This document shows, one piece after another, positions 7,878-42,628 of a DNA stretch of 64,000 nt; the stretch's first letter is position 1, and every line of letters starts with the position of its first letter. The DNA lies in NCBI GenBank assembly GCA_041665025.1, contig JBAYJP010000004.1, positions 26,311-90,310 on the forward strand, read 5' to 3'. This stretch comes from Candidatus Magasanikiibacteriota bacterium. Lineage in GTDB: Bacteria > Patescibacteriota > Patescibacteriia > Magasanikbacterales > UBA922. A program made the position numbers and the translations under genes. The notes beneath the pieces were generated by a model. That model was not told the origin of the DNA, did no database searches, and saw nothing but the letters and a program-made list of their open reading frames with translations.

Positions 7878-10800
7878 ATGCGACCATATTTTTTGAAGAG
7901 CGTTGCTCAGATAAAGGCGCGCTTATCTTCAATACTTCGGGTACAAAGAAACCGCTATTTTGCCGGTATATTTTTTGTATTTTGTATTACCATCGGATTA
8001 TTGTTTGTATCTCCTTCAAAAGCAGTTGAAGGCGTGAGTTGGCTTGTCGAGGGAGCTTCGTGGATGATACTTGGTATTGCACAAATTTGTATTGCATTGA
8101 CCGTATTTTTCTTGCGGTTTTTTATCACGCTTGCCAGTTACAACAATTATATTGACACCGCTGTAGTACAGCTTGGCTGGACTATGGTGCGCGATGTTGC
8201 CAACATGTTTTTCGTAGTGGCGCTTCTTGTTATCGCTTTTGCTACCATTTTGGGACTCGAACAATATGAATGGAAAAAAGGCTTAGCAAAGCTCATCATG
8301 ATGGCGCTTTTTATTAATTTTAGCAATCTTATTGCGCAGCTCATTATTGATGTCGCGCATGTATTTACCATTACCTTTCTCAATGCAGTATCAGCTACAG
8401 CCGGCGGGAACCTGATAAACATGTTTCAATTGCAGAATATTACGAGCATGGTGTTAAGTTCTGATACATCCCAACTACAGTTTGGCACAACCCCCGAAGG
8501 AGCAAGTACTGCAGTATTTATTGGGGTTGTGGTTGCTGCGTTATTTGCGATCATGGCTGCAGTTGCTATGGGTTCGTATGTGGTCGTCATGGCTATACGC
8601 GTGGTCGTATTGTGGGCTTTGATTATTTTGTCTCCTTTGGCGTATTTGCTTGCTGCCATGCCAAAAGGAGAAAAATATGCACAGCAATGGTGGAGCGAAT
8701 TTAGCAAACATGTTCTTGTGGCTCCGGTTATGGTATTTTTTCTGTGGCTTGCATTTGCGACCCTTGGTTCAGGGCAGATTTTACAAGAAATTCAAAATAA
8801 TGATCCAGCAGTGGTGCGCTTGCAGCAGACAAATGAAGCTGCCTCTATCTCAATTACCAAAGTATCGACGTGGGAGAACATGGCAAATTATTTGATTGCC
8901 TTTTTCTTTCTTATGATGGGTATCAAGATGACACAAGAGACAGGGGCCCAAGGAGCTGGGCTTGTGGGCGGAGCAGCAAACTTTGGAAAGAAAGTTGCAA
9001 CTATTGCGACGGGGTATGCGGCGGGTAGGTGGTTGGCCGGGAAGGCTGGGAAAGGTGCCGTGGCAGGGCTTAAAGGTGCCGCATATTATATGCCGGGTGT
9101 TGGTGGAAGGAGAATTGAGACTGCGCTAAAAACAGCTAAAGCAAATATTAAAGCAGGGTGGTATCGTAAAGGTGCAGGTATAACCGGAAAGGGTGTGATG
9201 GCACAGTCAGCACAAGCTAAGAAGGCACAGGAACTTGAAGAAATTGAGACAAAATTAAAAGATGAGAGTCTTGATAAGGGTGAGCGAGCTAAACTTGAGG
9301 AACGTAAAACTCAATTAACCGAAGGACATGCGCTTAGTGATAAAGAGCGACAAGAAGCTGCAAATGAGGCAGAAAAAAAAGGCATAAAACAAGGTAAATC
9401 TGAAAAAGAAATAGCGAGTATGAAACGCGATGCTGTCATGGAAGCAGAATTGGACGCTATGGGTACCAAAGGACTTCACGAAGTGGTTGGACAAGAATCA
9501 AGCGGTAAGAAGCATGGGGTTATCGGGTGGCTCGCACGCCGTGATGTTTCTCGTATGAAACATCTGAAAAAATCAGAAGGCCAGGCAGAAACTTTGGAAA
9601 AGCTTGCGTTCAAACATATGGGTTCAGAAGCCGGGGGTCTCATATTCAACAAAAAAAGCGCACAAATAAATGCACAAGATCGTTGGGAGCGTGGTTTGCT
9701 TAAGGCTGAAGAACGCAGAAGCAAAGCAAAAGACACAGAATTCGAAACAAAAGGAGAAGAAGCAGGTCTACATGAATCAAGGATAAAGTTTATGCCATCA
9801 GGCAGTACAGACTGGAAAAATCAGGAGAAGATGACTATGGCAGACCAGATAGCGTCCCATGATAGGGGTGCAGGAGCAGCGCAAAAACGCATTGAATCAG
9901 TGCTCAAAACTGCTGATATAAAAATAGATGTGAGTGCGAGTATTGCTGCGAAAGGGTTGGATGTGGAACAAAAGGGCGTGAATGGACTGCTATTATCAGA
10001 TGAACAGGTAGCAATGGAGGAAAAAAAAGCAAAGGCTGAAGAGGATGAGAGGATAATTGTAAAAGAAGTAAACGATAAATACGAACCACAAAGAGACGGC
10101 CTGAAGAAAGAAATGAGAGACGCGGTAGATACTGACCCAGCAGTTGAAGCTGCACAAAAGGCGTTAGATGCATATAGAGAGGAGGGAGGAAAAAGAGACA
10201 AATACCTTGAAACTGAGGAGGGAAAGGCAGAACAAAAAGAACGTGAAGATTCGATTGACGCAAAACTAAAAGCAAATAAAGAATTAGCAGAAGCTATTCG
10301 TAAAGATCCTAATACAAATTTTTCTGATCCAGCTCTTGAGGCTTTGGGGCAAAAATTGAAAAATGCACAAGAGGCACGGAAAACAGCTTTGGTAGATGGA
10401 AATACAAAAGAGGCGACAAAACAAACTGATAACATAAATAAAATAGAAGAAGATATAAAAAAAGCAAAAGAAGATCGTGCAACATTTGAAAAAGAAGAAC
10501 AGAAAGAGCAGGACAGATTATCTTCTCGAAGAGCCATGAAAACAGACGAAGAAGAGCAGTTGGTAAAAGATGTCTCTACAAAGAGAAAAGCTGTTATGGA
10601 AGATGAACAAGGGAAATATAAACTCGCAAAAGCTGAACATGATAAGCTCGGAAAAAGCATGGAGGCAGAGATTGACGATAAAGCCAGAGCACCTCGCGAG
10701 GTGATACGTACGGAAAGACAAAAGTTGAGTGACTATTTGAATGGTAGAGACAAGGATAAAGAAAACCCGGACGGAAAGAAGAAAAAATGGGAAGAATCTC

Positions 10801-12914
10801 CTGAATATGTAGCAAGAAGGAAAGAATGGGCAAGAAAAACTGCAGATATTGAAGCGAAAGCCCGTTCGACAAAAGGTCTCGGAGGTACTATTGCGCAGTA
10901 TCAGCTCGATACGGTAACCGCGCGTAAAAAAGCTACACAAGCTCAGCTCCAACAGCATGCGCTCGGTCTGAATAGCGTGAGCGAATTGTTTGAGAGAATG
11001 GAAATAGAAGAGCAATTCGCGGCCGCAGCTGAAAAAATAAAAGAAGGAATAAAAAACAGTCATTTGACTGAAATATTTAAAAAGGGGACTAAAGAATTAG
11101 AAAAAGCTGCTGAAGCAATAGCAAAAGGCGCTGCGTCAGTGAAAGATGCGTACAAAAATATTGGCGCGGGGGCGCAAGCTATAAAAGCAGAAGTCGAATC
11201 AGAGTATCTTACAAGTCTGAGCCAGACACAGCGTCAGCGCACAAAAGATGAAGCAGACGACCAGTATTCTTTGCAAAGATTTGGGTTTGGTACACCGTCG
11301 ACCGCGTTTAAAAATCTTATTAAAAAAAGAATGGATGAGACGTTTACTGGCGTAGAGCGTGAACAGGCGGTTGTTATGGCAATGGGCTCTCTCTCGCATC
11401 TGATGTTGGCACAGGAAGGTGGCGAAGAATTAGACTTGGATCATCAGGCGCAGATGATGGCAAATGTCCAATATTTGGTCAAACAAGCATGGTCAGATGA
11501 TCTATTGGCTCATATTGTCAATAAGGTTAACGACAAGGATAAATTTACTGGAAAAGAAAAGCAAGAAGCCGAAATGTTAGGTAGAGTATTCGTAGATAAA
11601 TTACACTGGGGAACACGGACAGGTGAAGGCGAGAATCAAAAAGTAGTTATAGACAAAAATATTTCTGACAATCGGCGTACCAATGATTTGCACCGTTTGA
11701 CCGCTTATGCTGGAGATACAGATTTATTGCAGTCAGAAAATGCCGTTTTGCATCATAAAAAACAGATGGAAGCAGAGCGAGGTGATAAGGTCGGCTATAT
11801 GGAAGCTGTCAAGGATCTAGCTGAAAAGATTACGGAAGCTCGAAACATTGCTGGGGGTGCAGACGTTGACGTGGAGAAGTTGGGTGAGAGTTTAGGTTTG
11901 AAAGGAATAGCAACTGGCGGAGAAGAACTAAAAGCATTTATGAAGCGATTTGCGAGTGAAGCCAGAGGTGCTGCTGATGCGGTAAGTGAATTTGAAAAGG
12001 ACATTCGTAGTCATTCCGAAGCAAATGAGCTCATGGCTGATTACAAAAATTTGGCACTGCAAGTTGGCCACTTGGATGATGGTGGCCACACGTATTATGA
12101 TATGGGTGACAAGATAGCACGCGGTCATTTGGCTGACGATGCCATGGAGTTCGTTTTGTCTGATTGGCGTAAATTGAACAGTAGAGAGAGAGCACGTCGT
12201 CTCAAATCGCATTCAATTGGTCAAATGGATGAGGATTCAGGGACAATATACAAGGATGAACGCAACATAAAGGCAATACAGGAGACAATGCAAGGTTTAA
12301 CGCGACTTGTATTTTCAGATATTGATGGACGAACTAAAGATCACACGGCCGGAGGAGAAGCGGGAGAAACTTTTGAAACAAATGATGCAACAGGAGCTGC
12401 TATGATCGGAGCACAAAGCGGTACTATGTTTCAAAAAACATTCAAAGACGCGGAAAAAGCCAGAGCAAAACTCAAGATTTTTTTTGAATCACTGACAGAT
12501 GATGCAGAAAAGCTGCTTTTATCTAATTTTGGAATGACCTCAGCACAAATGAAAGCAAAAGCTGAAACAGATGAAATATTTGCTCGTCGTCTCGCGACAT
12601 TGACTCAAGTTGCTGATAATTATGCAGTAGATGCGATCGGCAGTTCTGATTTTTTGGCTGCTAGTATTGGAAGCAAGTCGGGTGTTGAATATGATCTAGC
12701 CGTCCAAGGTAAATTTAATGTTGATCTAGGAGATCAAGATTTGAGAGTTGAAGTAAAAAATGAAGATAAGTTGCTTGATTGGATATCCATGTTGAGAACA
12801 AACAGAACAACAGTTGATTTTGAAAGACAAAGAAAAGCGATTGAGAACAAATTTAAATTAAACAAGAGACCAAAACCAGATTCAAAAAAGGAAGATGACA
12901 ATGAACCACGATAA
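7878..12914 (+). CDS. VirB6/TrbL-like polytopic membrane protein with ~1300-aa charged coiled-coil extension
   Basis: The first ~330 aa have 6 or more hydrophobic helices in a TrbL/VirB6-like arrangement. The remainder is a K/E/A-rich low-complexity coiled coil. The gene heads a cluster with PrgI-like and VirB4 genes. Confidence 0.5.
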   Translation: MRPYFLKSVAQIKARLSSILRVQRNRYFAGIFFVFCITIGLLFVSPSKAVEGVSWLVEGASWMILGIAQICIALTVFFLRFFITLASYNNYIDTAVVQLGWTMVRDVANMFFVVALLVIAFATILGLEQYEWKKGLAKLIMMALFINFSNLIAQLIIDVAHVFTITFLNAVSATAGGNLINMFQLQNITSMVLSSDTSQLQFGTTPEGASTAVFIGVVVAALFAIMAAVAMGSYVVVMAIRVVVLWALIILSPLAYLLAAMPKGEKYAQQWWSEFSKHVLVAPVMVFFLWLAFATLGSGQILQEIQNNDPAVVRLQQTNEAASISITKVSTWENMANYLIAFFFLMMGIKMTQETGAQGAGLVGGAANFGKKVATIATGYAAGRWLAGKAGKGAVAGLKGAAYYMPGVGGRRIETALKTAKANIKAGWYRKGAGITGKGVMAQSAQAKKAQELEEIETKLKDESLDKGERAKLEERKTQLTEGHALSDKERQEAANEAEKKGIKQGKSEKEIASMKRDAVMEAELDAMGTKGLHEVVGQESSGKKHGVIGWLARRDVSRMKHLKKSEGQAETLEKLAFKHMGSEAGGLIFNKKSAQINAQDRWERGLLKAEERRSKAKDTEFETKGEEAGLHESRIKFMPSGSTDWKNQEKMTMADQIASHDRGAGAAQKRIESVLKTADIKIDVSASIAAKGLDVEQKGVNGLLLSDEQVAMEEKKAKAEEDERIIVKEVNDKYEPQRDGLKKEMRDAVDTDPAVEAAQKALDAYREEGGKRDKYLETEEGKAEQKEREDSIDAKLKANKELAEAIRKDPNTNFSDPALEALGQKLKNAQEARKTALVDGNTKEATKQTDNINKIEEDIKKAKEDRATFEKEEQKEQDRLSSRRAMKTDEEEQLVKDVSTKRKAVMEDEQGKYKLAKAEHDKLGKSMEAEIDDKARAPREVIRTERQKLSDYLNGRDKDKENPDGKKKKWEESPEYVARRKEWARKTADIEAKARSTKGLGGTIAQYQLDTVTARKKATQAQLQQHALGLNSVSELFERMEIEEQFAAAAEKIKEGIKNSHLTEIFKKGTKELEKAAEAIAKGAASVKDAYKNIGAGAQAIKAEVESEYLTSLSQTQRQRTKDEADDQYSLQRFGFGTPSTAFKNLIKKRMDETFTGVEREQAVVMAMGSLSHLMLAQEGGEELDLDHQAQMMANVQYLVKQAWSDDLLAHIVNKVNDKDKFTGKEKQEAEMLGRVFVDKLHWGTRTGEGENQKVVIDKNISDNRRTNDLHRLTAYAGDTDLLQSENAVLHHKKQMEAERGDKVGYMEAVKDLAEKITEARNIAGGADVDVEKLGESLGLKGIATGGEELKAFMKRFASEARGAADAVSEFEKDIRSHSEANELMADYKNLALQVGHLDDGGHTYYDMGDKIARGHLADDAMEFVLSDWRKLNSRERARRLKSHSIGQMDEDSGTIYKDERNIKAIQETMQGLTRLVFSDIDGRTKDHTAGGEAGETFETNDATGAAMIGAQSGTMFQKTFKDAEKARAKLKIFFESLTDDAEKLLLSNFGMTSAQMKAKAETDEIFARRLATLTQVADNYAVDAIGSSDFLAASIGSKSGVEYDLAVQGKFNVDLGDQDLRVEVKNEDKLLDWISMLRTNRTTVDFERQRKAIENKFKLNKRPKPDSKKEDDNEPR

Positions 12915-15799: not shown

Positions 15800-16231
15800 A
15801 TGTATATGCAACAGTTCGTCATTCCACAATTTATCGATGTCGAAGACAAGATTTTTGGGCCAATCACCACACGTCAGTTTTTGATTTTGCTTGTGGCCGG
15901 CATTTGTATATTTTTATCCTACCGTTTTGCTGATCTTGCGTTGTTTATTGTCGTACTTGCCGTCATGGGGGGCTTGGCATTAGTGTTCGCATTTGTTAAA
16001 ATTAACGGACAGACGTTTCATTATTTTTTGTTAAATATTATTCAGACCTTGCGCAAGCCATCTTTGAGGATTTGGAGAAAATTTTATCATAAAAAAGAAT
16101 TAGAATTTTTGAGAAAACAAGTAACTGAAGAAAAAATTATTGAAGAAAAGGCAAAGCCCGTGCACAGAGAGAGAATTAGAGATTTGGCTCTGCTTGTTAA
16201 TACTGGTGGTTTTTATAAGCCAGAAGAATAA
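15800..16231 (+). CDS. PrgI-family (VirB3-like) conjugal-transfer membrane protein
   Basis: N-terminus VIPQFIDVEDKIFGPITTRQFLILL followed by two TM helices, typical of PrgI/VirB3-like proteins that sit upstream of VirB4. Confidence 0.55.
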   Translation: MYMQQFVIPQFIDVEDKIFGPITTRQFLILLVAGICIFLSYRFADLALFIVVLAVMGGLALVFAFVKINGQTFHYFLLNIIQTLRKPSLRIWRKFYHKKELEFLRKQVTEEKIIEEKAKPVHRERIRDLALLVNTGGFYKPEE

Positions 16232-16234
16232 TTA

Positions 16235-16310
16235 TGTACGAAATACGAAAACTACGAAATATTCGAAATACATTTTTTTCGTACCTTTCGCAGCTTTCGT
16301 ATTTCGTACA
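16235..16310. repeat. TACGAAA-heptamer palindromic element (copy B)
   Basis: More than 90% identical to copy A. Confidence 0.8.
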
Positions 16311-16322
16311 TAATATTATGTT

Positions 16323-16739
16323 ATGGACCAAGGAGGTAAACAATATACGCTAAGAAGAAATGATTTGATATATCCAGAATTGAGTTTTAAGATTAGTGGT
16401 GTTCTATTTAATGTGTTTAAACAGTTGGGCGGAGGTCATGAAGAAAAATACTACGAGAAAGCAGTGTCTATCGGTTTTACTAAAGGACAGATAAAGTTTA
16501 ACCGCCAATATTATGTTCCTCTAACGTATGAGGGTGAACATATTGGTAAATATTACTTAGATTTTTTAGTAGAGGGTAAGATAATATTGGAATTAAAAAG
16601 AGGAAAATATTTAAATGCACGTCTTATAGATCAGGTAACTAAATATTTGGAAACTTTAAAGTTACAATTGGCAATTATTGCATGTTTTACGAGCAATGGT
16701 GTAATAATAAAACGTATTATAAATCATAACATGCTGTAA
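16323..16739 (+). CDS. GxxExxY-family protein (PD-(D/E)xK-like)
   Basis: GGGHEEKYYEKAV matches the G-x-x-E-x-x-Y signature, and the length is ~140 aa. Flanked on both sides by TACGAAA elements. Confidence 0.6.
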   Translation: MDQGGKQYTLRRNDLIYPELSFKISGVLFNVFKQLGGGHEEKYYEKAVSIGFTKGQIKFNRQYYVPLTYEGEHIGKYYLDFLVEGKIILELKRGKYLNARLIDQVTKYLETLKLQLAIIACFTSNGVIIKRIINHNML

Positions 16740-16744
16740 TACAC

Positions 16745-16777
16745 TTTCGAAATTTCGTAGCTTTCGAATTTCGTACA
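16745..16777. repeat. TACGAAA-family half element (right arm only)
   Basis: tttcgaaatttcgtagctttcgaatttcgtaca. Confidence 0.5.
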
Positions 16778-16782
16778 TATAT

Positions 16783-17469
16783 ATGGATGATAAAGTCAAA
16801 CAAAAAAAGAGTAATTCCAAGCCGAGCACACAGGCCCATCTTCCTATTGCAGAAATACGGGAAGGTGTGGTGGTCTTGAAAGATGGAACATTGCGCGCGG
16901 TTCTCATGACCTCGAGTATTAATTTTGCGTTGAAATCAGAAGATGAACAGAATGCTCTTATTTCTTCGTATGTAGGATTTCTCAATTCTCTCGATTTTCC
17001 TGTGCAAATTGTCATCCAGTCGCGCCGATTGCAGATTAAGCCATATTTGGAGAAGCTTTCCACGCTCGAACGAGAGCAGAAAAACGAATTACTGCGTGTG
17101 CAAATTGCCGATTATCGTGCATTTATTGAGGAGTTGGTAGACATTGGAAAAATTATGACAAAAAAATATCTCGTAGTAGTCCCATATGATCCTATTTCAA
17201 ATAGCAAAAAGAGTTTTTGGTCTCGATTTAAAGAGGTAATAAAACCGGCTATTTCGTTGAGGCTTAAAAATGATCGTTTTCAAAAACGAAGGCAAGATTT
17301 GGATATGAGAGTCCGGCAAGTCGAAGGCGGCCTTTCATCTATGGGACTCCAAGTGGTCCAACTTGATACACAAGCGCTCATTGAATTGTATTACAGCACC
17401 TACAATCCCGATATTTCTTTTGCAGAGACCCTAGGAGATATTGATAAACAACAAGTAGAAACCATTTAA
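16783..17469 (+). CDS. VirB4/TraC-family N-terminal segment (first part of a split VirB4)
   Basis: LPIAEIREGVVVLKDGTLRAVL...FPVQIVIQSRR resembles the start of VirB4-type proteins. It is in the same frame (mod 3) as the next ORF, and the two are separated by a 102-bp element. Confidence 0.5.
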   Translation: MDDKVKQKKSNSKPSTQAHLPIAEIREGVVVLKDGTLRAVLMTSSINFALKSEDEQNALISSYVGFLNSLDFPVQIVIQSRRLQIKPYLEKLSTLEREQKNELLRVQIADYRAFIEELVDIGKIMTKKYLVVVPYDPISNSKKSFWSRFKEVIKPAISLRLKNDRFQKRRQDLDMRVRQVEGGLSSMGLQVVQLDTQALIELYYSTYNPDISFAETLGDIDKQQVETI

Positions 17470-17470
17470 T

Positions 17471-17565
17471 TATGTACGAATTAATTATGTACGAAATACG
17501 AAAACTACGAAATATCCGAAATACATTTTTTTCGTACCTTTCGCAGCTTTCGTATTTCGAACATA
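17471..17565. repeat. TACGAAA-heptamer palindromic element (copy C) separating the two VirB4 ORFs
   Basis: Near-identical to copies A and B, with a short 5' partial duplication atgtacgaattaatt. Confidence 0.8.
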
Positions 17566-17571
17566 TCTATT

Positions 17572-19452
17572 ATGCCGTTCAAACCCGTTAGTTTTGGAAA
17601 AAATCCAAAGTTCGCTCCCATATCTGCTCCAGAAGATGAACAAAAGAAAAAAGTTCAGCAGGAAATGGTGTCGTTGAAAGAAGAGCGTTTGTACCGCGAG
17701 GGCACTGTTGCCATTCGCGATCTTATTGCACCTTCTGCGTTTAGAGTTGAGTCAAGCTTTCTTCAGTTGGGTACGACTATGCTTCGGACTATTTTTATCG
17801 TGAGTTACCCTCGCTATATTTCTGTCGGATGGAGTGCGCCTATACTCAATTTGAATTTGACCATGGATATTAGTATGTTCTTTTATCCGATTAATTCTGC
17901 GATTATTTTGAAACAGCTCAAGAAAAAAGTAGGTGCATTGCAAGCGCAATTATCCGCGGATGCAGAAAAAGGAGCGCCCCGTGATCCAGTACGCGAAACG
18001 GCGTTGCAAGATATTGAACAATTGCGCGATGATTTGACTCAAGGCACTGAACATTTTTTTCAATTTGCGTTTTATATCACATTATATTCCACGAATCTTG
18101 AAGAATTGGAACGTATTACCGATGATATCCATAATATTTTTGGTTCAAAATTGATTCACAGCAAACATGTGTTGTATCAGGCAGAACAGGGATTTAATTC
18201 GACGGTACCGATGAGCGTCGATGAGCTTGTTATTGCGTTTAATATGAATTCATCTCCTATTGCAGCGTCATTTCCTTTTATATCTTCTGAGCTGACTTCC
18301 GACGATGGTATCTTGTATGGTGTGAATCGCCACAATAACAGTCTTATTTTGTTTGACCGTTTTTCTTTGCAAAATGCAAATATGGTCGTATTTGCAACCT
18401 CTGGTGCAGGAAAATCATATGCGGTTAAGTTGGAAATTTTGCGCAGTCTCATGATGGGAGTGGATATCATTGTCATCGACCCTGAAATGGAGTACGTGCA
18501 TCTTTGCGAGGCAGTAGGGGGTACGTATATCAGTATTTCTCTTGCTTCGGAAAGTAAAGTCAATCCGTTTGATTTGCCTCGACCTGTTGGGCAACAAGTT
18601 TCAACTGAAGATATTATCCGGAGTGCAGTTATTACACTCAAAGGGTTGTTGCGTATTATGTTTGGCACTATTACTGCCCAAGAGGATTCTATTTTGGATA
18701 GAGCATTGCTTGAAACATATGCCAAAAAAGATATTACTGCCCAAAGCGATTTGTCTACGGTTGAGCCGCCAATTATGCAAGATTTGCTTGATGTACTTGA
18801 AGGTATGGAAGGCGCAGAAACACTTGTGTTAAAGTTGAAAAAATATACGGAAGGAACATTTGCAGGACTTTTCAATTCACCGACCAATGTAAACATGAGC
18901 AATCAGCTTGTCATATTTAGTGTGCGTGATTTGGAAGATGAATTGCGTCCCATGGCTATTTATACATTGGTCAATTATATTTGGAATATTGTACGTTCGG
19001 AGCGCAAAAAGCGTTTGCTCATGATTGATGAGGCGTGGTGGCTCATGATGCATGAAGATAGCGCAAAATTTATGTACGCGCTTGTGAAACGGTGTCGCAA
19101 ATATTATTTGGGTGTTACGACGATTACCCAAGATGTGAATGATTTCTTGCGTTCTCAATATGGGCAAGCGATTGTAAACAACTCTGCGTTGCAAATGCTC
19201 TTGCGCCAGTCGCCGTCTGCGGTGGACGTGATCCAAAAAACATTCATGCTGACTGAAGGAGAGAAATATTTGCTTTTGGAAAGTCCGGTAGGGCAGGGTA
19301 TATTTTTTGCAGGCAACAAACATGCGGCCATTCAGATTGTTGCTTCATATACCGAAGACCAATTGGTTACATCAAATCCCCAGCAATTGCTTGAAATCGA
19401 GCGTGCTAAAAAAGAATTTGAACAGCAGATGACGGGACGAGACCAAAGTTGA
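17572..19452 (+). CDS. VirB4/TrbE/CagE-family T4SS ATPase (C-terminal major part)
   Basis: CagE_TrbE_VirB-type region (FIVSYPRYISVGW), Walker A FATSGAGKSY, Walker B LLMIDEAWWLM. Confidence 0.85.
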   Translation: MPFKPVSFGKNPKFAPISAPEDEQKKKVQQEMVSLKEERLYREGTVAIRDLIAPSAFRVESSFLQLGTTMLRTIFIVSYPRYISVGWSAPILNLNLTMDISMFFYPINSAIILKQLKKKVGALQAQLSADAEKGAPRDPVRETALQDIEQLRDDLTQGTEHFFQFAFYITLYSTNLEELERITDDIHNIFGSKLIHSKHVLYQAEQGFNSTVPMSVDELVIAFNMNSSPIAASFPFISSELTSDDGILYGVNRHNNSLILFDRFSLQNANMVVFATSGAGKSYAVKLEILRSLMMGVDIIVIDPEMEYVHLCEAVGGTYISISLASESKVNPFDLPRPVGQQVSTEDIIRSAVITLKGLLRIMFGTITAQEDSILDRALLETYAKKDITAQSDLSTVEPPIMQDLLDVLEGMEGAETLVLKLKKYTEGTFAGLFNSPTNVNMSNQLVIFSVRDLEDELRPMAIYTLVNYIWNIVRSERKKRLLMIDEAWWLMMHEDSAKFMYALVKRCRKYYLGVTTITQDVNDFLRSQYGQAIVNNSALQMLLRQSPSAVDVIQKTFMLTEGEKYLLLESPVGQGIFFAGNKHAAIQIVASYTEDQLVTSNPQQLLEIERAKKEFEQQMTGRDQS

Positions 19453-19491: not shown

Positions 19492-19845
19492 ATGGGGACG
19501 TATAAAGATTTGGATGTATATAATAGATCATTTAAATGTTCTATTGCGATTTATAAATTAAGTTTAGAATTGCCAAAATATTTGCAGTATGATATTGCAG
19601 ATGATATACGAAGGGCAGCGCGGTCAATTCCATCCAATATTGCTGAAGGATATGGTAGAGATAAATCTAGTGCTGACAAAATAAATTTTCTTAGAACCTC
19701 GCTTGGTTCTAATGATGAGGTATTATTTAATCTTGAGTTTATATTTCAACTAGGTTTAATCAAAAGAGAAAGATATGAAAAAGCAGTCGAGCAGTATACC
19801 ATTATAGGGGCAGAGCTTTTTAAACTCATTCAGACATTAAAATAA
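19492..19845 (+). CDS. four-helix-bundle protein (23S rRNA intervening-sequence protein family)
   Basis: The 117-aa protein has SIPSNIAEGYGR at its core, which is the family hallmark. Confidence 0.8.
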   Translation: MGTYKDLDVYNRSFKCSIAIYKLSLELPKYLQYDIADDIRRAARSIPSNIAEGYGRDKSSADKINFLRTSLGSNDEVLFNLEFIFQLGLIKRERYEKAVEQYTIIGAELFKLIQTLK

Positions 19846-19895: not shown

Positions 19896-20486
19896 ATGTT
19901 AACCCTTCGTCAACGAATTTTCATTATCTCAGGAATAATCATCGGGGTGATACTCGCGGTTGTTTTATTTATTTTATATGCGCGCGCTCCTAAAGCTCCC
20001 GATGCCGATGTCATAGAGGAACAGGCTGACCAAAATCAAGCGAATGTAAATACACAGCAAACGCAAATACCGCGCGTTATTGTACCTGCTCCAACTTCTA
20101 CAGTTCCACAAACCCCAGAAGAAGTATATATGAAGCAACTTGCCAAAATGTTTGTTGAGCGGTTTTTGAGTTATTCAAATCAATCAGGAGATCAACATCT
20201 CGAAGACGTATTGACATTTGTTACGCCAAAGATGAAAGCATGGGTTCTCAATCAGGCTGTGGAACAAAAACAGGTGTATGAAGGAATGACAACTTCTGTA
20301 TTAAGTACACACGTTTTGGAAAAGACAGGAGACAAGGCAAAAATTGAAATCGGTGCACAACAAATCGTAACCAGAGAAAAAGAAAATGGCGGGATAGAGA
20401 CGCTCACCGAACAAAAAACAGGCAGTGTTGATTTGGTAAAAGTTGGGGGTGAATGGAAAGTGGATGGGGTGTGGTGGGACGAATAA
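19896..20486 (+). CDS. membrane-anchored hypothetical protein (possible VirB8-like NTF2-fold periplasmic protein)
   Basis: A single N-terminal TM helix followed by a ~150-aa soluble domain. Position is right after VirB4. The fold assignment is speculative. Confidence 0.4.
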   Translation: MLTLRQRIFIISGIIIGVILAVVLFILYARAPKAPDADVIEEQADQNQANVNTQQTQIPRVIVPAPTSTVPQTPEEVYMKQLAKMFVERFLSYSNQSGDQHLEDVLTFVTPKMKAWVLNQAVEQKQVYEGMTTSVLSTHVLEKTGDKAKIEIGAQQIVTREKENGGIETLTEQKTGSVDLVKVGGEWKVDGVWWDE

Positions 20487-20559
20487 CGTAGTTATAAAGT
20501 TGAAAGTTATAAAGTTTGTAAAGTTCAAATCAATTTTTCATAATTCATCATTAATCTTA

Positions 20560-21810
20560 ATGTCTATGGAACAAGCCATGACGGCCACTAAGACAGTGAC
20601 CAATACCAAGCTGCTTGTAGCAACAGCCGTAATGCTCGTGGCAGGAGGATTGGCATTTGCCGTGGCGCCATTTAGTTATTCTCGAGAAGGTGCAAATTGT
20701 ATAGACTCAGTCACACTCGAGAAACAGTGTGGCAAAACGGGCTATAACTCCGCGTCGTTCACCTGTAGTGATGGTACTAAAATCGTTCAGTCAGAGAAAA
20801 AATGTCTAACTGCGAAGCAATGGGATTCCTACAGTGCACAATTATGCAAATCGCATTGTAAGGCAACAGGAGTAACTAAAAAAAATCTTGACCCAAGCTC
20901 AGGCCAAGTGAGAGAACTTTGCAGCGACAACCAAGATAATGATGGCGACCAATTGGTTGATTGTGCTGATAATGAATGTAATAGCGATACAAATTGTGCT
21001 GCCGTAAGCAGGACTGGGACGGGAGAGATACCCTCAACTGCAGTTATCTTTGCAGATATTAATTTAGAAAATGCTGTTCGGGAAACAATTAATAAGCCCA
21101 ATGGGTATGTCCTTAAGTCAGACGTCAATTCTATAGCAGAATTACGACTGAATGGGAAAGGGATTTTGAACCTTCAAGGTTTAGAAGAATTTAGGTCCTT
21201 GGTACTCTTAGATTTAAGAGACAACCAGATTAGTGATATTGCTCCGATAACTAGTCTGACAGGATTAATGAATCTTAATATAGATAATAATCGGATCACC
21301 AGTCTAGGTCAGTTTCGTCATCTTATAGCTTTGCAAGAATTATCTTTAAGGCAAAACCAGATAACGAGTATGGATATCCAGGGATCAATTTCTGGATTAA
21401 AAAGATTATATCTTAGCAACAATCAGATAAATGACATGAGTGGACTTATCACTCCACTATCATTATTTGCGTTTCCTATGTTGGAAGAGATCTATTTGGA
21501 TAATAATCAGATAAGTTCTCTGAGTGCTTTTAGCGGGGTGCAGACTATCAAAAAATTGAATCTAGCAAATAATCCAATTAGTGATATTTCTCCTTTGGAT
21601 TCTTCCTTACAGATAACATTTATTGATTTAACTAACAATCCCATACATAGTCTTGAAAGGATGAGATATTGGAATAGCTTACAAAGAGTTTTGGTGGGAG
21701 GAACTGCTTTAGATGGTCCTGAAGATTGCACGATGATTGGTAATCTCAGGGCGAGAGGGGTTACGGTAATAGTAGACAGTAGGATAAGTAATACCCTGTG
21801 TGAAATTTAA
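20560..21810 (+). CDS. surface protein: N-terminal signal-anchor, 6-Cys module, leucine-rich repeats
   Basis: Hydrophobic KLLVATAVMLVAGGLAFAV, then a 6-Cys region, then LRRs (LxxLxLxxNxIsdi, about 10 repeats). Confidence 0.6.
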   Translation: MSMEQAMTATKTVTNTKLLVATAVMLVAGGLAFAVAPFSYSREGANCIDSVTLEKQCGKTGYNSASFTCSDGTKIVQSEKKCLTAKQWDSYSAQLCKSHCKATGVTKKNLDPSSGQVRELCSDNQDNDGDQLVDCADNECNSDTNCAAVSRTGTGEIPSTAVIFADINLENAVRETINKPNGYVLKSDVNSIAELRLNGKGILNLQGLEEFRSLVLLDLRDNQISDIAPITSLTGLMNLNIDNNRITSLGQFRHLIALQELSLRQNQITSMDIQGSISGLKRLYLSNNQINDMSGLITPLSLFAFPMLEEIYLDNNQISSLSAFSGVQTIKKLNLANNPISDISPLDSSLQITFIDLTNNPIHSLERMRYWNSLQRVLVGGTALDGPEDCTMIGNLRARGVTVIVDSRISNTLCEI

Positions 21811-21843
21811 GACTTTAAAAAGCAATTTATTAATTCAATATAT

Positions 21844-23190
21844 ATGGAACAAACTATGACTGTCACTAAGAGTATAACCAATACCAAGCTGCTCGTGGCA
21901 ACAGGCGTAATGCTCGCAGCAGGAGGACTCGCATTTGCGACAGTGCCATTATCATATCAAAATGCACAGGGACAAAAATGCGGGGTAAATAGTTATAGTG
22001 TATCTCAAAATTGTGGGGGTTCTTCGTACAGACAAGCTAAAATCACATGTCACGATGGAAGTTCATATAATTTAGGAGGTCCTACATCATGTAAACCAGC
22101 AAAGACATGGGAGACGTATGCACAAAAACAATGCTATAATAGATGTGCAGTGCCTGTTTCAGCTCCACAGCTCACCATGGCAAGAGCTAGTGACTATGTT
22201 TCTGGAGACATGATTTTGGATAACAGATTTTTAATGGATCGTTTTATTTTGTCGGCTTCGAATCAAGAAGATATCCAGCTCAACCGAATGACATTTGCTA
22301 TCCTAAGAGCAGGAAGTGGTACTTTTTCTGGTAGAAATTGGAAACTTTCTTTTAATGATGGGGCTCAAGAATTTCAAAGCGAAGCTACGTATTCGTCGTC
22401 TCTTTCTGGCAGTGTTACATTTGATACCAATGTTATCATTCCAAAGGGGACGAATGTAAGGGCGACGCTTTATACAGATACGACCGAATCCCAAGGCGAT
22501 GTCTTTGTTTATACTGCACTTCGTGATCCTGGTGTAGTAGCTCGAGGTGTATCGAGTGCACAAAATGCTCAAATTATGGGGTTGCCTATTGTATGTCCAA
22601 CACGTTATGGGGAGTTTCCAACTATGACAACGTCAACAGCTTTCCCGGTAGTAGCGTTGCGTCCGTTAGACAGCACTCGTCTTATGAATGGCACAGGAGA
22701 TTTATTTAAGTTTACTATAACTGCCGCATCAGACGATATTTCTCTTTATGGCGTAACTTTCGATATCCAATCTTACAATGTATCAGTAGATAATTTATAT
22801 CTGTATGACGTGACAAACAGTAGTTTTGAGATACAGTTAAACAGTACAACAGGTACTGCTGGTTTATGGCAAACAGTGGGCAGTGACTGGGCAACAAATT
22901 ATCCAAATAAAGAAATAGCCATATCAGGTGGCACTTCACGTACGTTTGTAGTAAGAGGTAATATAAGAGGAGCTACTATAGGTTCTGCAGTCATGGTGAG
23001 ATTGGCCGGTGATGCCAATTCTATACCTGCAGGTAGCGCTGCACAGATTGACGCGAGTGCTGACGGCGATTTTATCTGGTCTGATAGGAGTAATGCAAGC
23101 CATGGTATAACAACAGATGATTGGTTTAATGGTTATGGTGTTTCAGGGCTTCCTGCAACATTCACTAATTATCAGACGTTAGCCTACTAA
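21844..23190 (+). CDS. paralogous surface protein: same N-terminal anchor and 6-Cys module, divergent beta-rich C-terminus
   Basis: MEQTMTVTKSITNTKLLVATGVML... and the same 6-Cys spacing as the upstream gene. The C-terminal part is unrelated. Confidence 0.55.
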   Translation: MEQTMTVTKSITNTKLLVATGVMLAAGGLAFATVPLSYQNAQGQKCGVNSYSVSQNCGGSSYRQAKITCHDGSSYNLGGPTSCKPAKTWETYAQKQCYNRCAVPVSAPQLTMARASDYVSGDMILDNRFLMDRFILSASNQEDIQLNRMTFAILRAGSGTFSGRNWKLSFNDGAQEFQSEATYSSSLSGSVTFDTNVIIPKGTNVRATLYTDTTESQGDVFVYTALRDPGVVARGVSSAQNAQIMGLPIVCPTRYGEFPTMTTSTAFPVVALRPLDSTRLMNGTGDLFKFTITAASDDISLYGVTFDIQSYNVSVDNLYLYDVTNSSFEIQLNSTTGTAGLWQTVGSDWATNYPNKEIAISGGTSRTFVVRGNIRGATIGSAVMVRLAGDANSIPAGSAAQIDASADGDFIWSDRSNASHGITTDDWFNGYGVSGLPATFTNYQTLAY

Positions 23191-23265
23191 CTAAATTTGA
23201 GTAGTCATCAAAAAAGCTCGCTATATTGGCGGGCTTTTTATATTGCCATGTCTAGTATGTTTTAT

Positions 23266-23982
23266 TTATCCTCGCGCAATGGTAAATCCGATTGTTTGTG
23301 TCGCGTTATTTTCTTTTAGTACCTTGGCACATTCTTGCATCGTACTTCCAGTAGTAAATACGTCATCAACAATGATTATCGTCTTATTTTTTATCATATC
23401 TTTTTGCGTCTCTTCGATTTCAAATGCATTTGCGAGATTTGTCAGTCGACCTCCACGATTTAATTTGGCCTGCTGTTTGGTATGCCGTGATCGTTTTAGT
23501 GGTTTCAATAATGGAATATGCATTATATTAGAAATAATTTGTGCGAGGAGTTCAGCTTGGTTAAATCCGCGTTCAGCGTATCGTCGTTTGTGAAGGGGGA
23601 TGGGTATCAAAAAGTCTGCTTCGAGTTTATAGCGCGAAAGAAAATGTAAAAATATTTTTTCACATGTTCCCAAAATATCTTGCGCATATGAATACTTGAG
23701 CGTATGTATGATGTTGCCCTTGAGGGAATGTTCTTGATACGGTGTTATTGCAATATGAAGGTCCAAAGATGATTGAGGTCTGCATGCCTCACAGCATACC
23801 CCATCTGGTTGTTTTGCATGGCATACAGGACAACAAAAAACACCCGACAAGTCGAGCGTTTTAAAACATTGTTCGCATACAAATGATCCCTCGACATTGC
23901 AACCAAGACAGTACATGGGAAACACGATATCTTTGACTGTCGTTAGATATTTTTGAATCAGTTTGTTTCCCTCCCTAAACAT
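23266..23982 (-). CDS. comF: ComF-family protein (phosphoribosyltransferase-like, Cys4 N-terminus)
   Basis: CLGC..CEQC..CPVCH zinc finger and a PRTase motif IIVDDVFTTGST. Confidence 0.8.
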   Translation of the reverse strand: MFREGNKLIQKYLTTVKDIVFPMYCLGCNVEGSFVCEQCFKTLDLSGVFCCPVCHAKQPDGVCCEACRPQSSLDLHIAITPYQEHSLKGNIIHTLKYSYAQDILGTCEKIFLHFLSRYKLEADFLIPIPLHKRRYAERGFNQAELLAQIISNIMHIPLLKPLKRSRHTKQQAKLNRGGRLTNLANAFEIEETQKDMIKNKTIIIVDDVFTTGSTMQECAKVLKENNATQTIGFTIARG

Positions 23983-24097
23983 ACTTTGTATATCGAAAAA
24001 TATTAAGATATTACGATATTGAAATTGTTACATTACGTTTTCACGTATCACGTAACACATAGCCCAACATGTAAAGTCTGTGTGTTTCATGAGGTGT

Positions 24098-25216
24098 TTA
24101 TGTGGTACTATGACCGCGCGTCCAATCGAGTATCACTTTTTTGACATCATCTGAATCAACAGTGATGACCCCTTTTTTCTGCAATTCATTTTCAAGAGCT
24201 TCTCTTTTTTTGAGAAGTTGTTTTTTTTTGCTCTCTGGTGTCTTTTGTAGGCCAGTATCTATGGCTTGAATTTCTTTCCAAATTTGTGCAACTTCCGGAT
24301 GTGCTTCCACTGCCGCCTGGTAAAGGATAGGGACTATAGATTCATGTACATGAGATACTTTTATCATTGCTGCGGCTTCATCTATCGCGTCTATCGCCTT
24401 GTCGGGCAATGTGCGTGTCTTTATGAGCTTATGTGATAATTCAGCAGCTACAATGAGAGCTGTATCAGTAAATTCAACTTTATGATACGTCCTATATTTA
24501 TCTTTGATGCCTTGTAGTATCTTTAACGTTTCTTTTACATCAGGTTCTTGTATTTCTACTGGTTGGAATCTGCGTTCAAGGCTTGGGTTGGTCAAAATAT
24601 ATTTTGCATACTCGTCTGTCGTCGTGGCGCCGATCATTTGTAATTCTCCTCGAGCCAAAGCAGGCTTGAGGATATCGGCAAAATTGACAGATCCTTCCGT
24701 ACCATGCGACTGTACGATAGAATGAATTTCGTCGATAAACAAGATAATAGAACGGTTTGCCTTTTCTATTTCTTCAAGAATTTTACGAATTCTTTTTTCA
24801 AATTCTCCGCGGTATTTGGTATCAGAGAGAAGCTTGGAAACTTCGAGAGAAATAACACGTTTATTTTTGAGTATGTCTGGGACGTTATTTTCAGCAACTT
24901 GTACTGCAAAACCTTCTACAATTGCAGTTTTTCCTACGCCTGGAGATCCCACAAGAATGGCATTATTTTTATTTCGGCGAATGAGGACTTGGGTTAGCTT
25001 GCGTATCTCATCGTCACGTCCGATTACCGGATCTATTTTTTTTATTCGGGCGAGTGCAGTGAAATCAATAGAAAAAGAATTAAGCATGGGAGTGGAAGAT
25101 GGGGCATACGTTTTTGCCCCCGCGTTATTTTTATTTTTATGTATTGCCAAAAAAAGTACAGTAATGATAATAAGAAGACCGAGTAGAGGAACATTATTCC
25201 AAAAAAGTGATGACAT
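24098..25216 (-). CDS. membrane-anchored Clp/Hsp100-type AAA+ ATPase, D1 domain only (truncated relative to ClpB/ClpC)
   Basis: N-terminal TM, then RDDEIRKLTQVL, Walker A GSPGVGKTAIVEG, Walker B ILFIDEIH, then a GAR-rich region. The protein ends at the motif that normally precedes D2 (VILDWTRG). Confidence 0.65.
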   Translation of the reverse strand: MSSLFWNNVPLLGLLIIITVLFLAIHKNKNNAGAKTYAPSSTPMLNSFSIDFTALARIKKIDPVIGRDDEIRKLTQVLIRRNKNNAILVGSPGVGKTAIVEGFAVQVAENNVPDILKNKRVISLEVSKLLSDTKYRGEFEKRIRKILEEIEKANRSIILFIDEIHSIVQSHGTEGSVNFADILKPALARGELQMIGATTTDEYAKYILTNPSLERRFQPVEIQEPDVKETLKILQGIKDKYRTYHKVEFTDTALIVAAELSHKLIKTRTLPDKAIDAIDEAAAMIKVSHVHESIVPILYQAAVEAHPEVAQIWKEIQAIDTGLQKTPESKKKQLLKKREALENELQKKGVITVDSDDVKKVILDWTRGHSTT

Positions 25217-30514: not shown

Positions 30515-30548
30515 TTAATAGTAAGATCAGAAGATCGAAAGATCATTT
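30515..30548. repeat. inverted repeat flanking four-helix-bundle gene (aagatc x3)
   Basis: taagatcagaagatcgaaagatcat. Its partner lies at 30899-30942 (atgatcttttgatcttacgatctta). Confidence 0.6.
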
Positions 30549-30899
30549 TTTGAGTGAATTAATATACAAATTAAGATCTTTTGTAAGTTGTTTATACAGA
30601 TTATTTATATGAATAAATTCTTCTTTTGTTAAATAATTTTTGCCGAATGCTACAGACAAGTGACTTCTTGCTTCGGCTATTTCACCGCGTGATATATACA
30701 GAATTCTTTTTTTGTCTGCATAATAAAATCTTCCATGAGATTCAGCTATATTCGCAATGATACTATTTGCAGATCGTACTGTCTGTGACACGAGAGCATA
30801 TTTTTCCCATTCAGGATATTTTTCCGTAATGGTATATACATACATAAGAGCATTATAGCCATTTTTCCATATACCAAGCTCATAAAACTCTTTGTACAT
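30543..30899 (-). CDS. four-helix-bundle protein (23S rRNA intervening-sequence protein family), second copy
   Basis: 118 aa with ANIAESHGRFYYADK... pattern, homologous to the protein at 19492-19845. Confidence 0.8.
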   Translation of the reverse strand: MYKEFYELGIWKNGYNALMYVYTITEKYPEWEKYALVSQTVRSANSIIANIAESHGRFYYADKKRILYISRGEIAEARSHLSVAFGKNYLTKEEFIHINNLYKQLTKDLNLYINSLKK

Positions 30900-37266: not shown

Positions 37267-37911
37267 ATGGTAAAACAAGACTCTTCAGAGATCGAAAAAA
37301 TTCAAAATGAAGAAGGGGTAGAGCAAATCAATAACCTTGATGAAATTCATGAAAAAGGCTTTCTCAATAAGGCCGGTTTGTTTTTTTTGGAAGTAATCAA
37401 AATTGTCGTACTCGCAGGCATTACTATTGGCTTAGTCAGGTATTTTCTCTTTAAGCCTTTTTATGTAAAAGGCCAGTCCATGGAGCCGACATTTTATGAA
37501 CGAGATTATCTTATTATCGATGAAATTACCTATAGATTTCGTTTGCCAGAACGGGGTGAAGTAGTTGTTCTAGATTCACCAGTCAATAGTGACCATTATT
37601 TAAAAAGAATTGTCGGAGTTCCTGGTGATCGTGTAAAAGTAGAGGAAGGAAAAGTTATTATATATAATGACACATACCCTCGCGGTTGGGTACTTGAGGA
37701 AGAATATGTGACAGAAAATACTCCGGGGTCTTTGAGTATCACGCTTGGAGATAATCAATATTTTGTTTTGGGGGATAATCGTGATGCAAGTTATGATTCC
37801 CGTCGTTTTGGTGCTATCAACCGTAGTGAGATTATCGGACGCGTATGGCTACGCGGATGGCCATTTAGCCGTGTGTCTACGTTTACCGTGCCAGAATATA
37901 CACAGAGTTAA
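37267..37911 (+). CDS. lepB: signal peptidase I
   Basis: Catalytic Ser box GQSMEPTF, RIVGVPGD, and VLGDNRDASYDSR (Lys box region). Confidence 0.85.
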   Translation: MVKQDSSEIEKIQNEEGVEQINNLDEIHEKGFLNKAGLFFLEVIKIVVLAGITIGLVRYFLFKPFYVKGQSMEPTFYERDYLIIDEITYRFRLPERGEVVVLDSPVNSDHYLKRIVGVPGDRVKVEEGKVIIYNDTYPRGWVLEEEYVTENTPGSLSITLGDNQYFVLGDNRDASYDSRRFGAINRSEIIGRVWLRGWPFSRVSTFTVPEYTQS

Positions 37912-42622: not shown

Positions 42623-42628
42623 TAGCCT

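Follow-up and report, generated by a model that had tools for sequence, protein, structure and literature searches.

Two adjacent genes in a genome of Candidatus Magasanikiibacteriota, that of an uncultured, ultra-small bacterium of the Patescibacteria, encode proteins that begin almost alike and end quite differently, and this raises the question of what the common front end is and why it precedes different C-terminal domains. The genes were examined in a stretch of 64,000 nucleotides (contig JBAYJP010000004.1, positions 26,311 to 90,310), here called the window, to which all coordinates refer unless another locus is named. Gene A (20560..21810, forward strand) encodes a 416-amino-acid (aa) protein composed of a leader, a six-cysteine (6-Cys) domain, a putative acidic double-disulfide repeat, a leucine-rich repeat (LRR) solenoid and a cysteine-containing C-terminal cap. 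The product of gene B (21844..23190, forward strand; 448 aa) has a leader and a 6-Cys domain followed by two predicted beta-sandwich domains. The original prediction had described the pair as tandem surface proteins that share an anchor plus 6-Cys module and differ in their binding domains. The observation is confirmed and its interpretation is partly supported. On balance, A and B are probably Sec-exported, disulfide-stabilised extracellular binding proteins, in which a constant N-terminal cassette is combined with exchangeable C-terminal binding modules.

The common front end of A and B

In a BLASTP comparison, A and B had 47 identities in 101 positions (47%, E 5e-26); the match was limited to the first ~101 residues, and no further similar segment was detected beyond them. 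The six cysteines are at positions 47, 57, 69, 82, 96 and 100 of A and 46, 57, 69, 83, 97 and 101 of B, a spacing equal to within one residue. Two neighbouring open reading frames with a common N-terminus and aligned cysteines are thus present as claimed. A second ATG in A, at 20566, is at the position that matches the start codon of B in the alignment, and B is 100% identical to the NCBI entry 'hypothetical protein WCW16_04190' from a metagenome-assembled genome (MAG) of Candidatus Magasanikbacteria. The profile hidden Markov model (HMM) built for the leader matched A with E 3e-13 and B with E 1e-14, and neither this model nor tblastn found further copies in the 64 kb window.

The leader covers residues 1-34 of A (20560..20661, forward strand; MSMEQAMTATKTVTNTKLLVATAVMLVAGGLAFA) and residues 1-32 of B (21844..21939, forward strand; MEQTMTVTKSITNTKLLVATGVMLAAGGLAFA). 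The consensus of 54 leaders is T-x-T-K-T-x-S-[VI]-T-N-T-[KQ]-L-A-[VI]-A-[TV]-x5-A-G-G-L-A-F-A-A-x-P, or in short form TxTKTxS[VI]TNT[KQ]L...AGGLAFAAxP. When the invariant Thr is taken as motif position 0, Ser or Thr is found at each second position from -8 through +2, with Thr at -8, -6, -4, 0 and +2, and Lys is found at -5 and +3. This Lys-containing n-region is followed by an h-region of ~11 residues and a GG helix breaker at motif +15/+16 (35-40 of 54 leaders). Ala is at +18 in 49 leaders, Ala, Gly or Ser at +20 in 45, and Pro at +23 in 48; in the separate cleavage-site numbering, where -1 is motif +20, these positions are -6/-5, -3, -1 and +3, respectively. As judged by these position statistics, the leader would qualify as a Sec type I signal peptide. 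Because of this classic signal peptidase I context and the presence of a signal peptidase I gene in the window (37267-37911), the leader is read as cleavable. It is probably a special Sec signal peptide, for which the label 'anchor' is probably wrong.

The leader was matched by no model in Pfam or NCBIfam. A PDB sequence search with a leader-containing profile returned only short transmembrane peptides, which were rejected as spurious. Motif-bearing signal peptides are a feature of certain Firmicute surface proteins, and include YSIRK-G/S and the KxYKxGKxW of serine-rich adhesins that use an accessory Sec system. The leader resembles these in having a conserved motif within a Sec-type signal peptide that is limited to one class of surface proteins. 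It differs in that its motif, TxTKTxS[VI]TNT[KQ]L...AGGLAFA, is unrelated, in that the possible partner here is an AAA+ ATPase, and in that no SecA2/Y2 accessory genes were seen here.

The distribution of the front end was assessed with a profile of the A and B N-terminal modules in an exhaustive HMM search of 1.84 billion proteins, in which counts refer to cluster representatives. This yielded 246 representatives at E<=1e-3 and 40 at E<=1e-10. HMMs for the leader and the Cys domain were then mapped separately on 150 listed proteins of the 246. At least 58 representatives among these 150 carry the leader, and in ~50 of the 58 one Cys domain follows it directly. Several proteins have the leader without a Cys domain (e.g. 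P0132, P0139 and P0142), and 92 of the 150 have the Cys domain without the leader. Since each occurs without the other, the leader and the 6-Cys domain are separable elements, and the predicted 'anchor plus 6-Cys module' does not hold as a single unit. The possibility that the likeness is only that of a generic signal peptide is also ruled out, as the Cys domain alone was recognised repeatedly and the N-terminal profile found 246 representatives.

Stand-alone proteins of 105-140 aa, consisting of the leader and a Cys domain, also exist. The leaderless Cys-domain proteins include lipoprotein-like ones with up to seven tandem copies, and such carriers were found in one Deltaproteobacteria MAG and one Levybacteria. 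The Deltaproteobacteria carrier indicates that the Cys domain is not confined to the candidate phyla radiation (CPR). P0002, P0006, P0007 and P0043 have 3-7 tandem Cys domains with acidic linkers after lipoprotein-like signals (…IAGCP…, …VSGCL…). Short (GY)n runs, e.g. YGYGYGY, are found in P0009, P0014, P0070, P0041 and the protein encoded at 3197-3625 of a related locus (L003); they follow the leader and precede the Cys domain, or else are C-terminal.

Of the searches for homologues, the exhaustive HMM search alone was effective. Word-indexed homologue searches found nothing with the N-terminal module of B, only B itself with full-length B, and four proteins with a 43-sequence profile, evidently because the word index was swamped by low-complexity words. 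On genome contigs, a KCGV-based pattern gave no loci and a leader alignment gave at least one, and an explicit degenerate DNA pattern gave only two loci on metagenome contigs.

The two elements have evolved differently. Where tandem pairs were compared in three genomes, leaders of paralogues within a genome were 65-76% identical as against 42-65% between orthologues, and the Cys domains had the opposite pattern, with 55-80% identity between orthologues and 29-39% between paralogues. In the window, the same codon is used at 77% of the residues conserved between the A and B leaders and at 42% of those conserved between the Cys domains (Fisher p = 0.03). A 114-nt direct repeat with 81% identity (20559..20672 and 21837-21950, forward strand) spans the leader-coding DNA. 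As the Cys domains group by orthology, the duplication that gave A and B is old. The leaders have evolved in concert, and their likeness is maintained by gene conversion, by selection for a shared genome-specific partner, or by both.

The six-cysteine domain and the APP copper-binding domain

The 6-Cys domain, as delimited with the domain HMM, extends over residues 43-102 of A (A-type; 20686..20865, forward strand), and that of B (B-type) over residues 42-103 (21967..22152, forward strand; AlphaFold2 pLDDT ~90). The domain of A is 66-80% identical to A-type orthologues and 30-34% identical to B-type domains. It has ~60 residues, and a model made in AlphaFold2 with 43 family sequences (pLDDT ~90) consists of a beta-hairpin, a third strand and one helix. 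No solved relative was found with Foldseek for this predicted domain, and no family in Pfam or NCBIfam matched it at normal thresholds.

When the domain profile was compared with the PDB in its natural order, the copper-binding domain (CuBD) of human APP and that of Caenorhabditis elegans APL-1 were matched as two stretches in swapped order. A circularly permuted profile gave one collinear alignment, with E 4.1e-6 for APL-1 (2M05) and 6.4e-4 for 2FJZ, and APP-family chains were the sole matches at E<=1. In a scan of all cut points, the single-stretch score rose from 11-20 bits to 31.7 bits for APL-1 and 23 bits for APP, and this rise was seen only for cuts between Cys3 and Cys4. None of 5000 shuffles, whether composition-preserving or with fixed Cys positions, reached the real score, the maximum being 17 bits. 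Natural tandem arrays were recognised by the Pfam model APP_Cu_bd (PF12924) above its gathering score of 26.4 bits in P0019 (29.7), P0029 (29.6) and P0036 (27.7), and these alignments span the junction of two tandem repeats, which is the permuted register. A and B gave no collinear APP_Cu_bd match at E<=0.1, and the best isolated domain had E 0.013, below threshold. It weighs against this relationship that the cut point was picked after the unpermuted result; this is partly offset by the full cut-point scan and by the test on natural sequences. A likeness to Sushi/CCP domains (E 0.002 with the unpermuted profile) was rejected because it vanished in the permuted search while the APP matches strengthened.

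In the permuted alignment, Cys83, Cys97, Cys57 and Cys69 of B correspond to Cys144, Cys158, Cys174 and Cys186 of APP. This predicts disulfides Cys57-Cys83 and Cys69-Cys97 in B, equivalent to APP 144-174 and 158-186, and a third one, Cys46-Cys101, would staple the termini of the domain. In APP, the Cys144-Cys174 disulfide is documented, and His147, His151 and Tyr168 are the copper ligands (PMC5281630). The columns of His147 and His151 are unconserved in the bacterial profile, and that of Tyr168 contains Tyr, Phe or Leu (Tyr51 in B). The 6-Cys domain is thus probably a circularly permuted relative of the CuBD, as its alignment suggests, and probably not a copper site. In common with the APP CuBD (PF12924; 2FJZ/1OWT, and 2M05 of APL-1), it would be extracellular, has six cysteines in ~60 residues and is predicted to consist of one helix and three strands. 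It differs in the permuted order of the elements, in the placement of the third disulfide, in the unconserved copper ligands and in its hosts, which are CPR bacteria and at least one Deltaproteobacteria MAG, as opposed to animals.

One protein of the family has its Cys-domain elements in another order. The 142-aa leader protein encoded at 3197-3625 of L003 has a Cys3-type strand, then Cys4-helix-Cys5, then a 'GVNTFSI...C' strand and a GYGYGYGY tail. It looks like a natural permutant of the 6-Cys domain and was not recognised by Pfam APP_Cu_bd. A literature search turned up nothing relevant on the leader, the 6-Cys domain or bacterial relatives of the CuBD. The front end, a leader class joined to a permuted CuBD-like domain, is previously undescribed, and its carriers are modular bacterial surface proteins with a new front end.

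Variable C-terminal domains and genomic context

The C-terminal parts of A and B are unrelated, as had been predicted. In A, a single putative copy of the acidic double-disulfide repeat (20911..20997, forward strand; residues 118-146, LCSDNQDNDGDQLVDCADNECNSDTNC) is matched by NCBIfam NF033662 with E 1.4e-7 and 31 bits against a cutoff of 41, and this model is usually found in multiple copies. The LRR region follows at 21037..21801 (forward strand; residues ~160-414) and ends in the cap with Cys390 and Cys414. Pfam recognises LRR_4 (E 2e-22, 79 bits) and LRR_8 (E 4e-17, 62 bits), each well above a cutoff of 27 bits. The LRRs foreseen in A are therefore present, and the count of about ten was slightly high, as seven canonical 22-residue repeats lie at residues 214-373 and one or two degenerate repeats, identified by pattern, flank them. 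The best NCBIfam matches are internalin models (NF033188/NF033189; E 7e-23) with 81 and 76 bits against cutoffs of 1050 and 1600. A shares with the class 1 internalins of Listeria (InlA, InlH) an N-terminal export signal followed by 22-residue LRRs. It differs in lacking the Ig-like inter-repeat domain and an LPXTG/GW anchor and in scoring far under the family cutoffs, and internalins in turn lack the N-terminal 6-Cys domain and the acidic disulfide repeat.

The C-terminal region of B (22168..23178, forward strand) has no Pfam or NCBIfam match. In an AlphaFold2 model based on 15 homologues (mean pLDDT 66), it forms two all-beta domains, predicted as beta-sandwiches at residues ~109-245 and ~268-445, in agreement with the claim that it is beta-rich. 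The nearest structures in Foldseek are tandem Ig-like domains of surface proteins (PrgB and the C-termini of antigen I/II) and transglutaminase barrels, with E ~1e-4 and TM ~0.15. The model supports Ig-like beta-sandwiches and no finer assignment. B resembles the PrgB and antigen I/II adhesins in its predicted tandem Ig-like beta-sandwiches and differs from them in the absence of sequence similarity, of an LPXTG motif and of a polymer-adhesin domain. Neither A nor B has a C-terminal sorting motif, and LPXTG, GW, SLH and LysM modules were not found in their C-termini.

In an iterative search, the B-type C-terminal region recurred in ~18 of the 150 listed proteins, always after a leader and a Cys domain. 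Pfam analysis of 55 leader proteins identified CARDB in seven, Beta_helix/NosD in five, DUF1565 in three and LRR in one, as well as TSP_3 and DUF1554. These counts and the recurrence of the B-type region define, at the family level, a constant front end with an exchangeable back end of binding type. The predicted constant module with variable recognition domains is upheld to that extent and holds family-wide; the word 'anchor' probably fails, given the anatomy of a cleavable Sec signal peptide.

The surroundings of leader genes were surveyed at 16 distinct loci. A conserved order was recognised, in which SMC, DHH, ClpP, VanW, HSP20 and AAA+ genes precede one or more leader genes, and these face a convergent row of comF, a gene for a 19x-aa membrane protein, VirB4, TrsD, PrgI and further genes of a type IV secretion system (T4SS). 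This neighbourhood is complete in L012 and L015 (Magasanikbacteria) and L017, and partial in L005, L006 and L009-L011. The occupants of the slot differ. L009 and, in part, L006 have the same type of pair, in which an LRR orthologue of A (70% and 63% identity, respectively) is followed by a second leader protein with a C-terminus unlike that of B. A single B-type protein occupies the slot in L005, L012, L015 and L017, a beta-helix protein in L001, and a leader protein without a Cys domain in L004. Leader genes are thus found in a slot that is conserved in position and variable in content, with the T4SS-comF operon on one side and the gene of a membrane AAA+ ATPase on the other. The 'diversified repertoire' of the original prediction fits the second gene and the wider family, and does not fit A, which is conserved rather than hypervariable, with orthologues 63-70% identical.

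Other members of the family are found at PheST (L007, L016), at Aldedh/HhH-GPD (L002, L018), at thymidine-kinase loci (L003, with a tandem pair, and L008) and at an AAA+ locus without a T4SS (L013/L014), and there too the occupants differ between genomes. VirB4 is in view at 4 of the 16 loci, and comF/TM19x is at the contig end in 2 more; no T4SS gene was found at 7 loci with several kb of flank.

In the window, the block {comF, B, A} (20487-24097) is inverted relative to five related genomes (compared with L009, L012, L015 and L017). In the relatives, the leader genes run towards the T4SS-comF operon and in the same direction as the AAA+ gene. The inversion parts the leader genes from the AAA+ gene and takes comF out of the T4SS operon, and it is the reason why A and B are co-directional with, and directly downstream of, the T4SS genes. 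The position that had been noted for the pair is correct, and the link seen between A/B and the T4SS is positional only; a functional one is not supported by these loci. No inverted repeats were found at the inversion breakpoints.

The AAA+ gene of the window (24098..25216, reverse strand) encodes a ClpB/ClpA D1-like ATPase according to Pfam and NCBIfam, with an N-terminal hydrophobic segment and the pore loop KYRGEFE. In 10 of the 16 loci, a gene of this type is at most one gene away from a leader gene, in both gene orders and with differing outer flanks; from this count the AAA+ gene, and not the T4SS, is the most consistent neighbour of the leader proteins. It precedes the leader gene by 20-66 nt in L001 (AAA+ gene at 1478-2617), L004 (1034-2302), L005 (287-1429), L006 (140-1243), L009 (7473-8627), L012 (190-1341), L015 (8783-9937) and L017 (8783-9934), and in L013/L014 (1135-2253 in L013) the leader gene ends 1 nt ahead of it. 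The proteins have 370-385 aa and consist of only the hydrophobic segment and a ClpB/ClpA D1-type module with its lid. All of eight orthologues have the hydrophobic segment, Walker A and the pore loop KYRG[ED]FE, the strict Walker B pattern is found in five of the eight, and the orthologues are 57-72% identical, as in related genomes. An ATPase with a single Clp-D1 ring and a membrane anchor is in itself an unusual protein.

The T4SS core of the window, all on the forward strand, spans 15800..19452 and includes genes for PrgI/VirB3-like (15800-16231), TrsD-like (16783-17469) and VirB4 (17572-19452) proteins. It is orthologous to the clusters in L012, L015 and L017. A gene for a conserved bitopic membrane protein of 196 aa (19896..20486, forward strand) follows virB4 in every orthologous cluster; the protein is 43% identical to its counterparts in L009 and L012 and holds the same position in L015 and L017. 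A PDB sequence search with it gave no match, and a VirB8-like label would be a guess. The comF-family gene (23266..23982, reverse strand; TIGR00201, E 2e-31) belongs to the conserved neighbourhood by synteny. TrsD, VirB4 and PrgI are typical of the MPF-FATA-like T4SS of Patescibacteria, which the window cluster matches, and in the ABY1 class comF is often found nearby (PMC12102498).

A PD-(D/E)XK_3 gene (16323-16739) lies inside the T4SS row between the PrgI and TrsD genes, and 23S-rRNA-IVP (four-helix-bundle) genes are located at 19492-19845, between VirB4 and the 196-aa gene, and at 30543-30899. The orthologous clusters of L012, L015 and L017 lack the PD-(D/E)XK_3 and IVP insertions; L016 also has an IVP gene. 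The T4SS cluster is headed by a 1678-aa open reading frame (7878-12914, forward strand), the N-terminal ~330 residues of which are 54% identical to the ~1000-aa first gene product of the L012 cluster (weak TrbL_3/VirB6-like match). Its middle 2 kb (10001-12000) has an extreme AT skew of 0.34 and a GC skew of 0.28, which suggests a strongly biased, possibly repetitive insert.

Two adjacent forward-strand genes, at 40388-42622 and 42629-55234, encode proteins of 744 and 4201 aa that each open with T4SS_pilin (PF18895, VirB2-like) and continue with Big_5, Laminin_G_3, TIG, beta-propeller and DUF4215 regions. They look like 'modular T4SS pilins' and would be, after A and B, another case in the window in which a constant N-terminal carrier is followed by a large variable part. 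Two small TSP3_bac-repeat proteins (55244-55657 and 55759-56661) are encoded directly after the 4201-aa gene and may share a surface apparatus. A CAP (cysteine-rich secretory protein family) domain protein is encoded at 733-2019, followed by an IS200-like Y1 transposase gene at 1988-2593.

Possible function of the leader proteins

In the reading that we favour, the family leader, with its alternating-Thr n-region (TxTKTxS[VI]TNT[KQ]), short hydrophobic core, GG and LAFA, would direct Sec export, and signal peptidase I would probably remove it after AFA in most members. The 6-Cys domain would fold extracellularly into three strands and one helix with three disulfides and may serve as a constant base or adaptor. 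The distal module, as suggested by domain type, would engage a ligand, A via its internalin-like LRR solenoid and B via its two Ig-like beta-sandwiches, and given the epibiotic lifestyle of the group this ligand would most plausibly be on the surface of a partner or host cell. An old duplication would have given the pair, the leaders of which would then have been homogenised in each genome through gene conversion, through co-adaptation to a genome-specific partner, or through both.

Several points weigh against this reading. The ligand and the host-binding role are taken purely from domain types, the model of B is only moderate (pLDDT 66, with Foldseek TM-scores of ~0.15), and disulfides are assumed to form, with neither a Dsb nor a VKOR gene seen in the window. 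The loci surveyed were drawn from the best-scoring relatives, so orthologues of this locus are over-represented. As to the leader, 9 of 54 have no small residue at -1 and carry Val, Ile, Met or Leu instead; the near-invariant Pro at +3 would block other nearby cleavage sites, so that some or all members could be membrane-anchored. If the leader is cleaved, no mechanism of retention is evident, LPXTG, GW, SLH and LysM all being absent. A possible, if rather doubtful, alternative, which corresponds to the 'anchor' of the original prediction, is that the leader is uncleaved and forms an N-terminal transmembrane anchor (N-in, C-out), with the n-region in the cytoplasm and the 6-Cys domain as a membrane-proximal stalk. 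The hydrophobic stretch from motif +4 to +22 has 19 residues, Pro at +23 is better conserved than the -1 residue, an anchor would provide the retention that is otherwise not visible in A or B, and the strong conservation of the n-region would be better accounted for if this region stayed in the mature protein. Yet ~83% of leaders have the GG at -6/-5 and the Ala at -3 and -1 that typify a signal peptidase I site, the h-region ahead of the GG has only ~11 residues, and AlphaFold2 gives no confident helix at the leader (pLDDT <50), itself weak evidence.

The consistent AAA+ neighbour suggests, as a tentative alternative with a low probability, that the n-region is a tag for the membrane ClpB-D1-like ATPase, which would hold, deliver, extract or clear precursors or cleaved leaders, much as accessory export systems serve proteins with special signal peptides. 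The pairing in 10 of 16 loci occurs in both orders and even without a T4SS (L013/L014), the hydrophobic segment, Walker A and threading pore loop are kept in all eight orthologues, and the homogenisation of leaders within genomes would fit co-adaptation to a genome-specific partner. That homogenisation is, however, accounted for by gene conversion alone; six of the 16 loci have no AAA+ gene nearby, all loci are from related genomes in which synteny may be inherited, and no ClpB-D1-only membrane ATPase is known biochemically to act on signal peptides. It is unlikely that A and B are dedicated to the adjacent T4SS as contact proteins with a function like that of PrgB in pCF10. The T4SS that PrgB serves is of the MPF-FATA lineage, to which the Patescibacterial system also belongs, and the survey of Patescibacterial T4SS detected no adhesins like PrgB (PMC12102498), so that the role is unfilled. 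A and B adjoin the T4SS in the window, the same neighbourhood is found in L012, L015 and L017 and partly in L005 and L009, and the top Foldseek match of B is to the Ig-like domains of PrgB (E 9e-5). But with a TM of ~0.15 this match is generic for tandem Ig folds, the leader genes in relatives are convergent to the T4SS operon and not part of it, and the family is also present at the PheST, Aldedh/HhH-GPD and thymidine-kinase loci and next to AAA+ genes without a T4SS. The syntenic loci are all from close relatives (AAA+ proteins 57-72% identical), and their synteny may reflect shared descent. The two T4SS_pilin fusions at 40388-55234 are stronger candidates than A/B for adhesins presented by the T4SS.

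Modular type IV pilins such as PilB of Streptococcus sanguinis, in which diverse binding modules are grafted on a constant carrier (PMC8179133), have the same design as A and B, and the existence of stand-alone leader and 6-Cys proteins would fit it. It is nevertheless very improbable that the leader and 6-Cys domain form a carrier that is polymerised or presented on a filament, as A and B lack the Gly at -1 and the Glu at +5 of a class III signal, have no pilin fold, show no sign of polymerisation and have no pilin match in Pfam or NCBIfam, PF18895 matching the two other window proteins described above. Readings of A and B as pilins or as T4SS effectors were rejected on motif and domain grounds. 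A more far-reaching proposal, in which the leader marks a dedicated export or processing route via the AAA+ ATPase in ABY1-class CPR and the cargo borne on the permuted CuBD constitutes the undiscovered cell-contact proteins of the T4SS, is a speculative one with a small chance of being correct.

The favoured reading, that of exported binding proteins with a constant front end, has consequences for the biology of the group. CPR/Patescibacteria are thought to live attached to other cells, and few of their contact proteins are known. The leader motif and the 6-Cys domain provide a searchable signature for exported proteins with interchangeable binding modules, and the proteins that bear it at conserved, content-variable positions are concrete candidates for host-contact proteins. 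The leader would also represent a class of signal peptides that evolves in concert within genomes and has a conserved pairing with a membrane AAA+ unfoldase-like ATPase. A CuBD-like domain is otherwise known from the animal APP family, and if the relationship is true structurally, the assumed taxonomic range and history of this domain would change. The finding would be the more important if either the AAA+ pairing or the CuBD relationship proves to be true.

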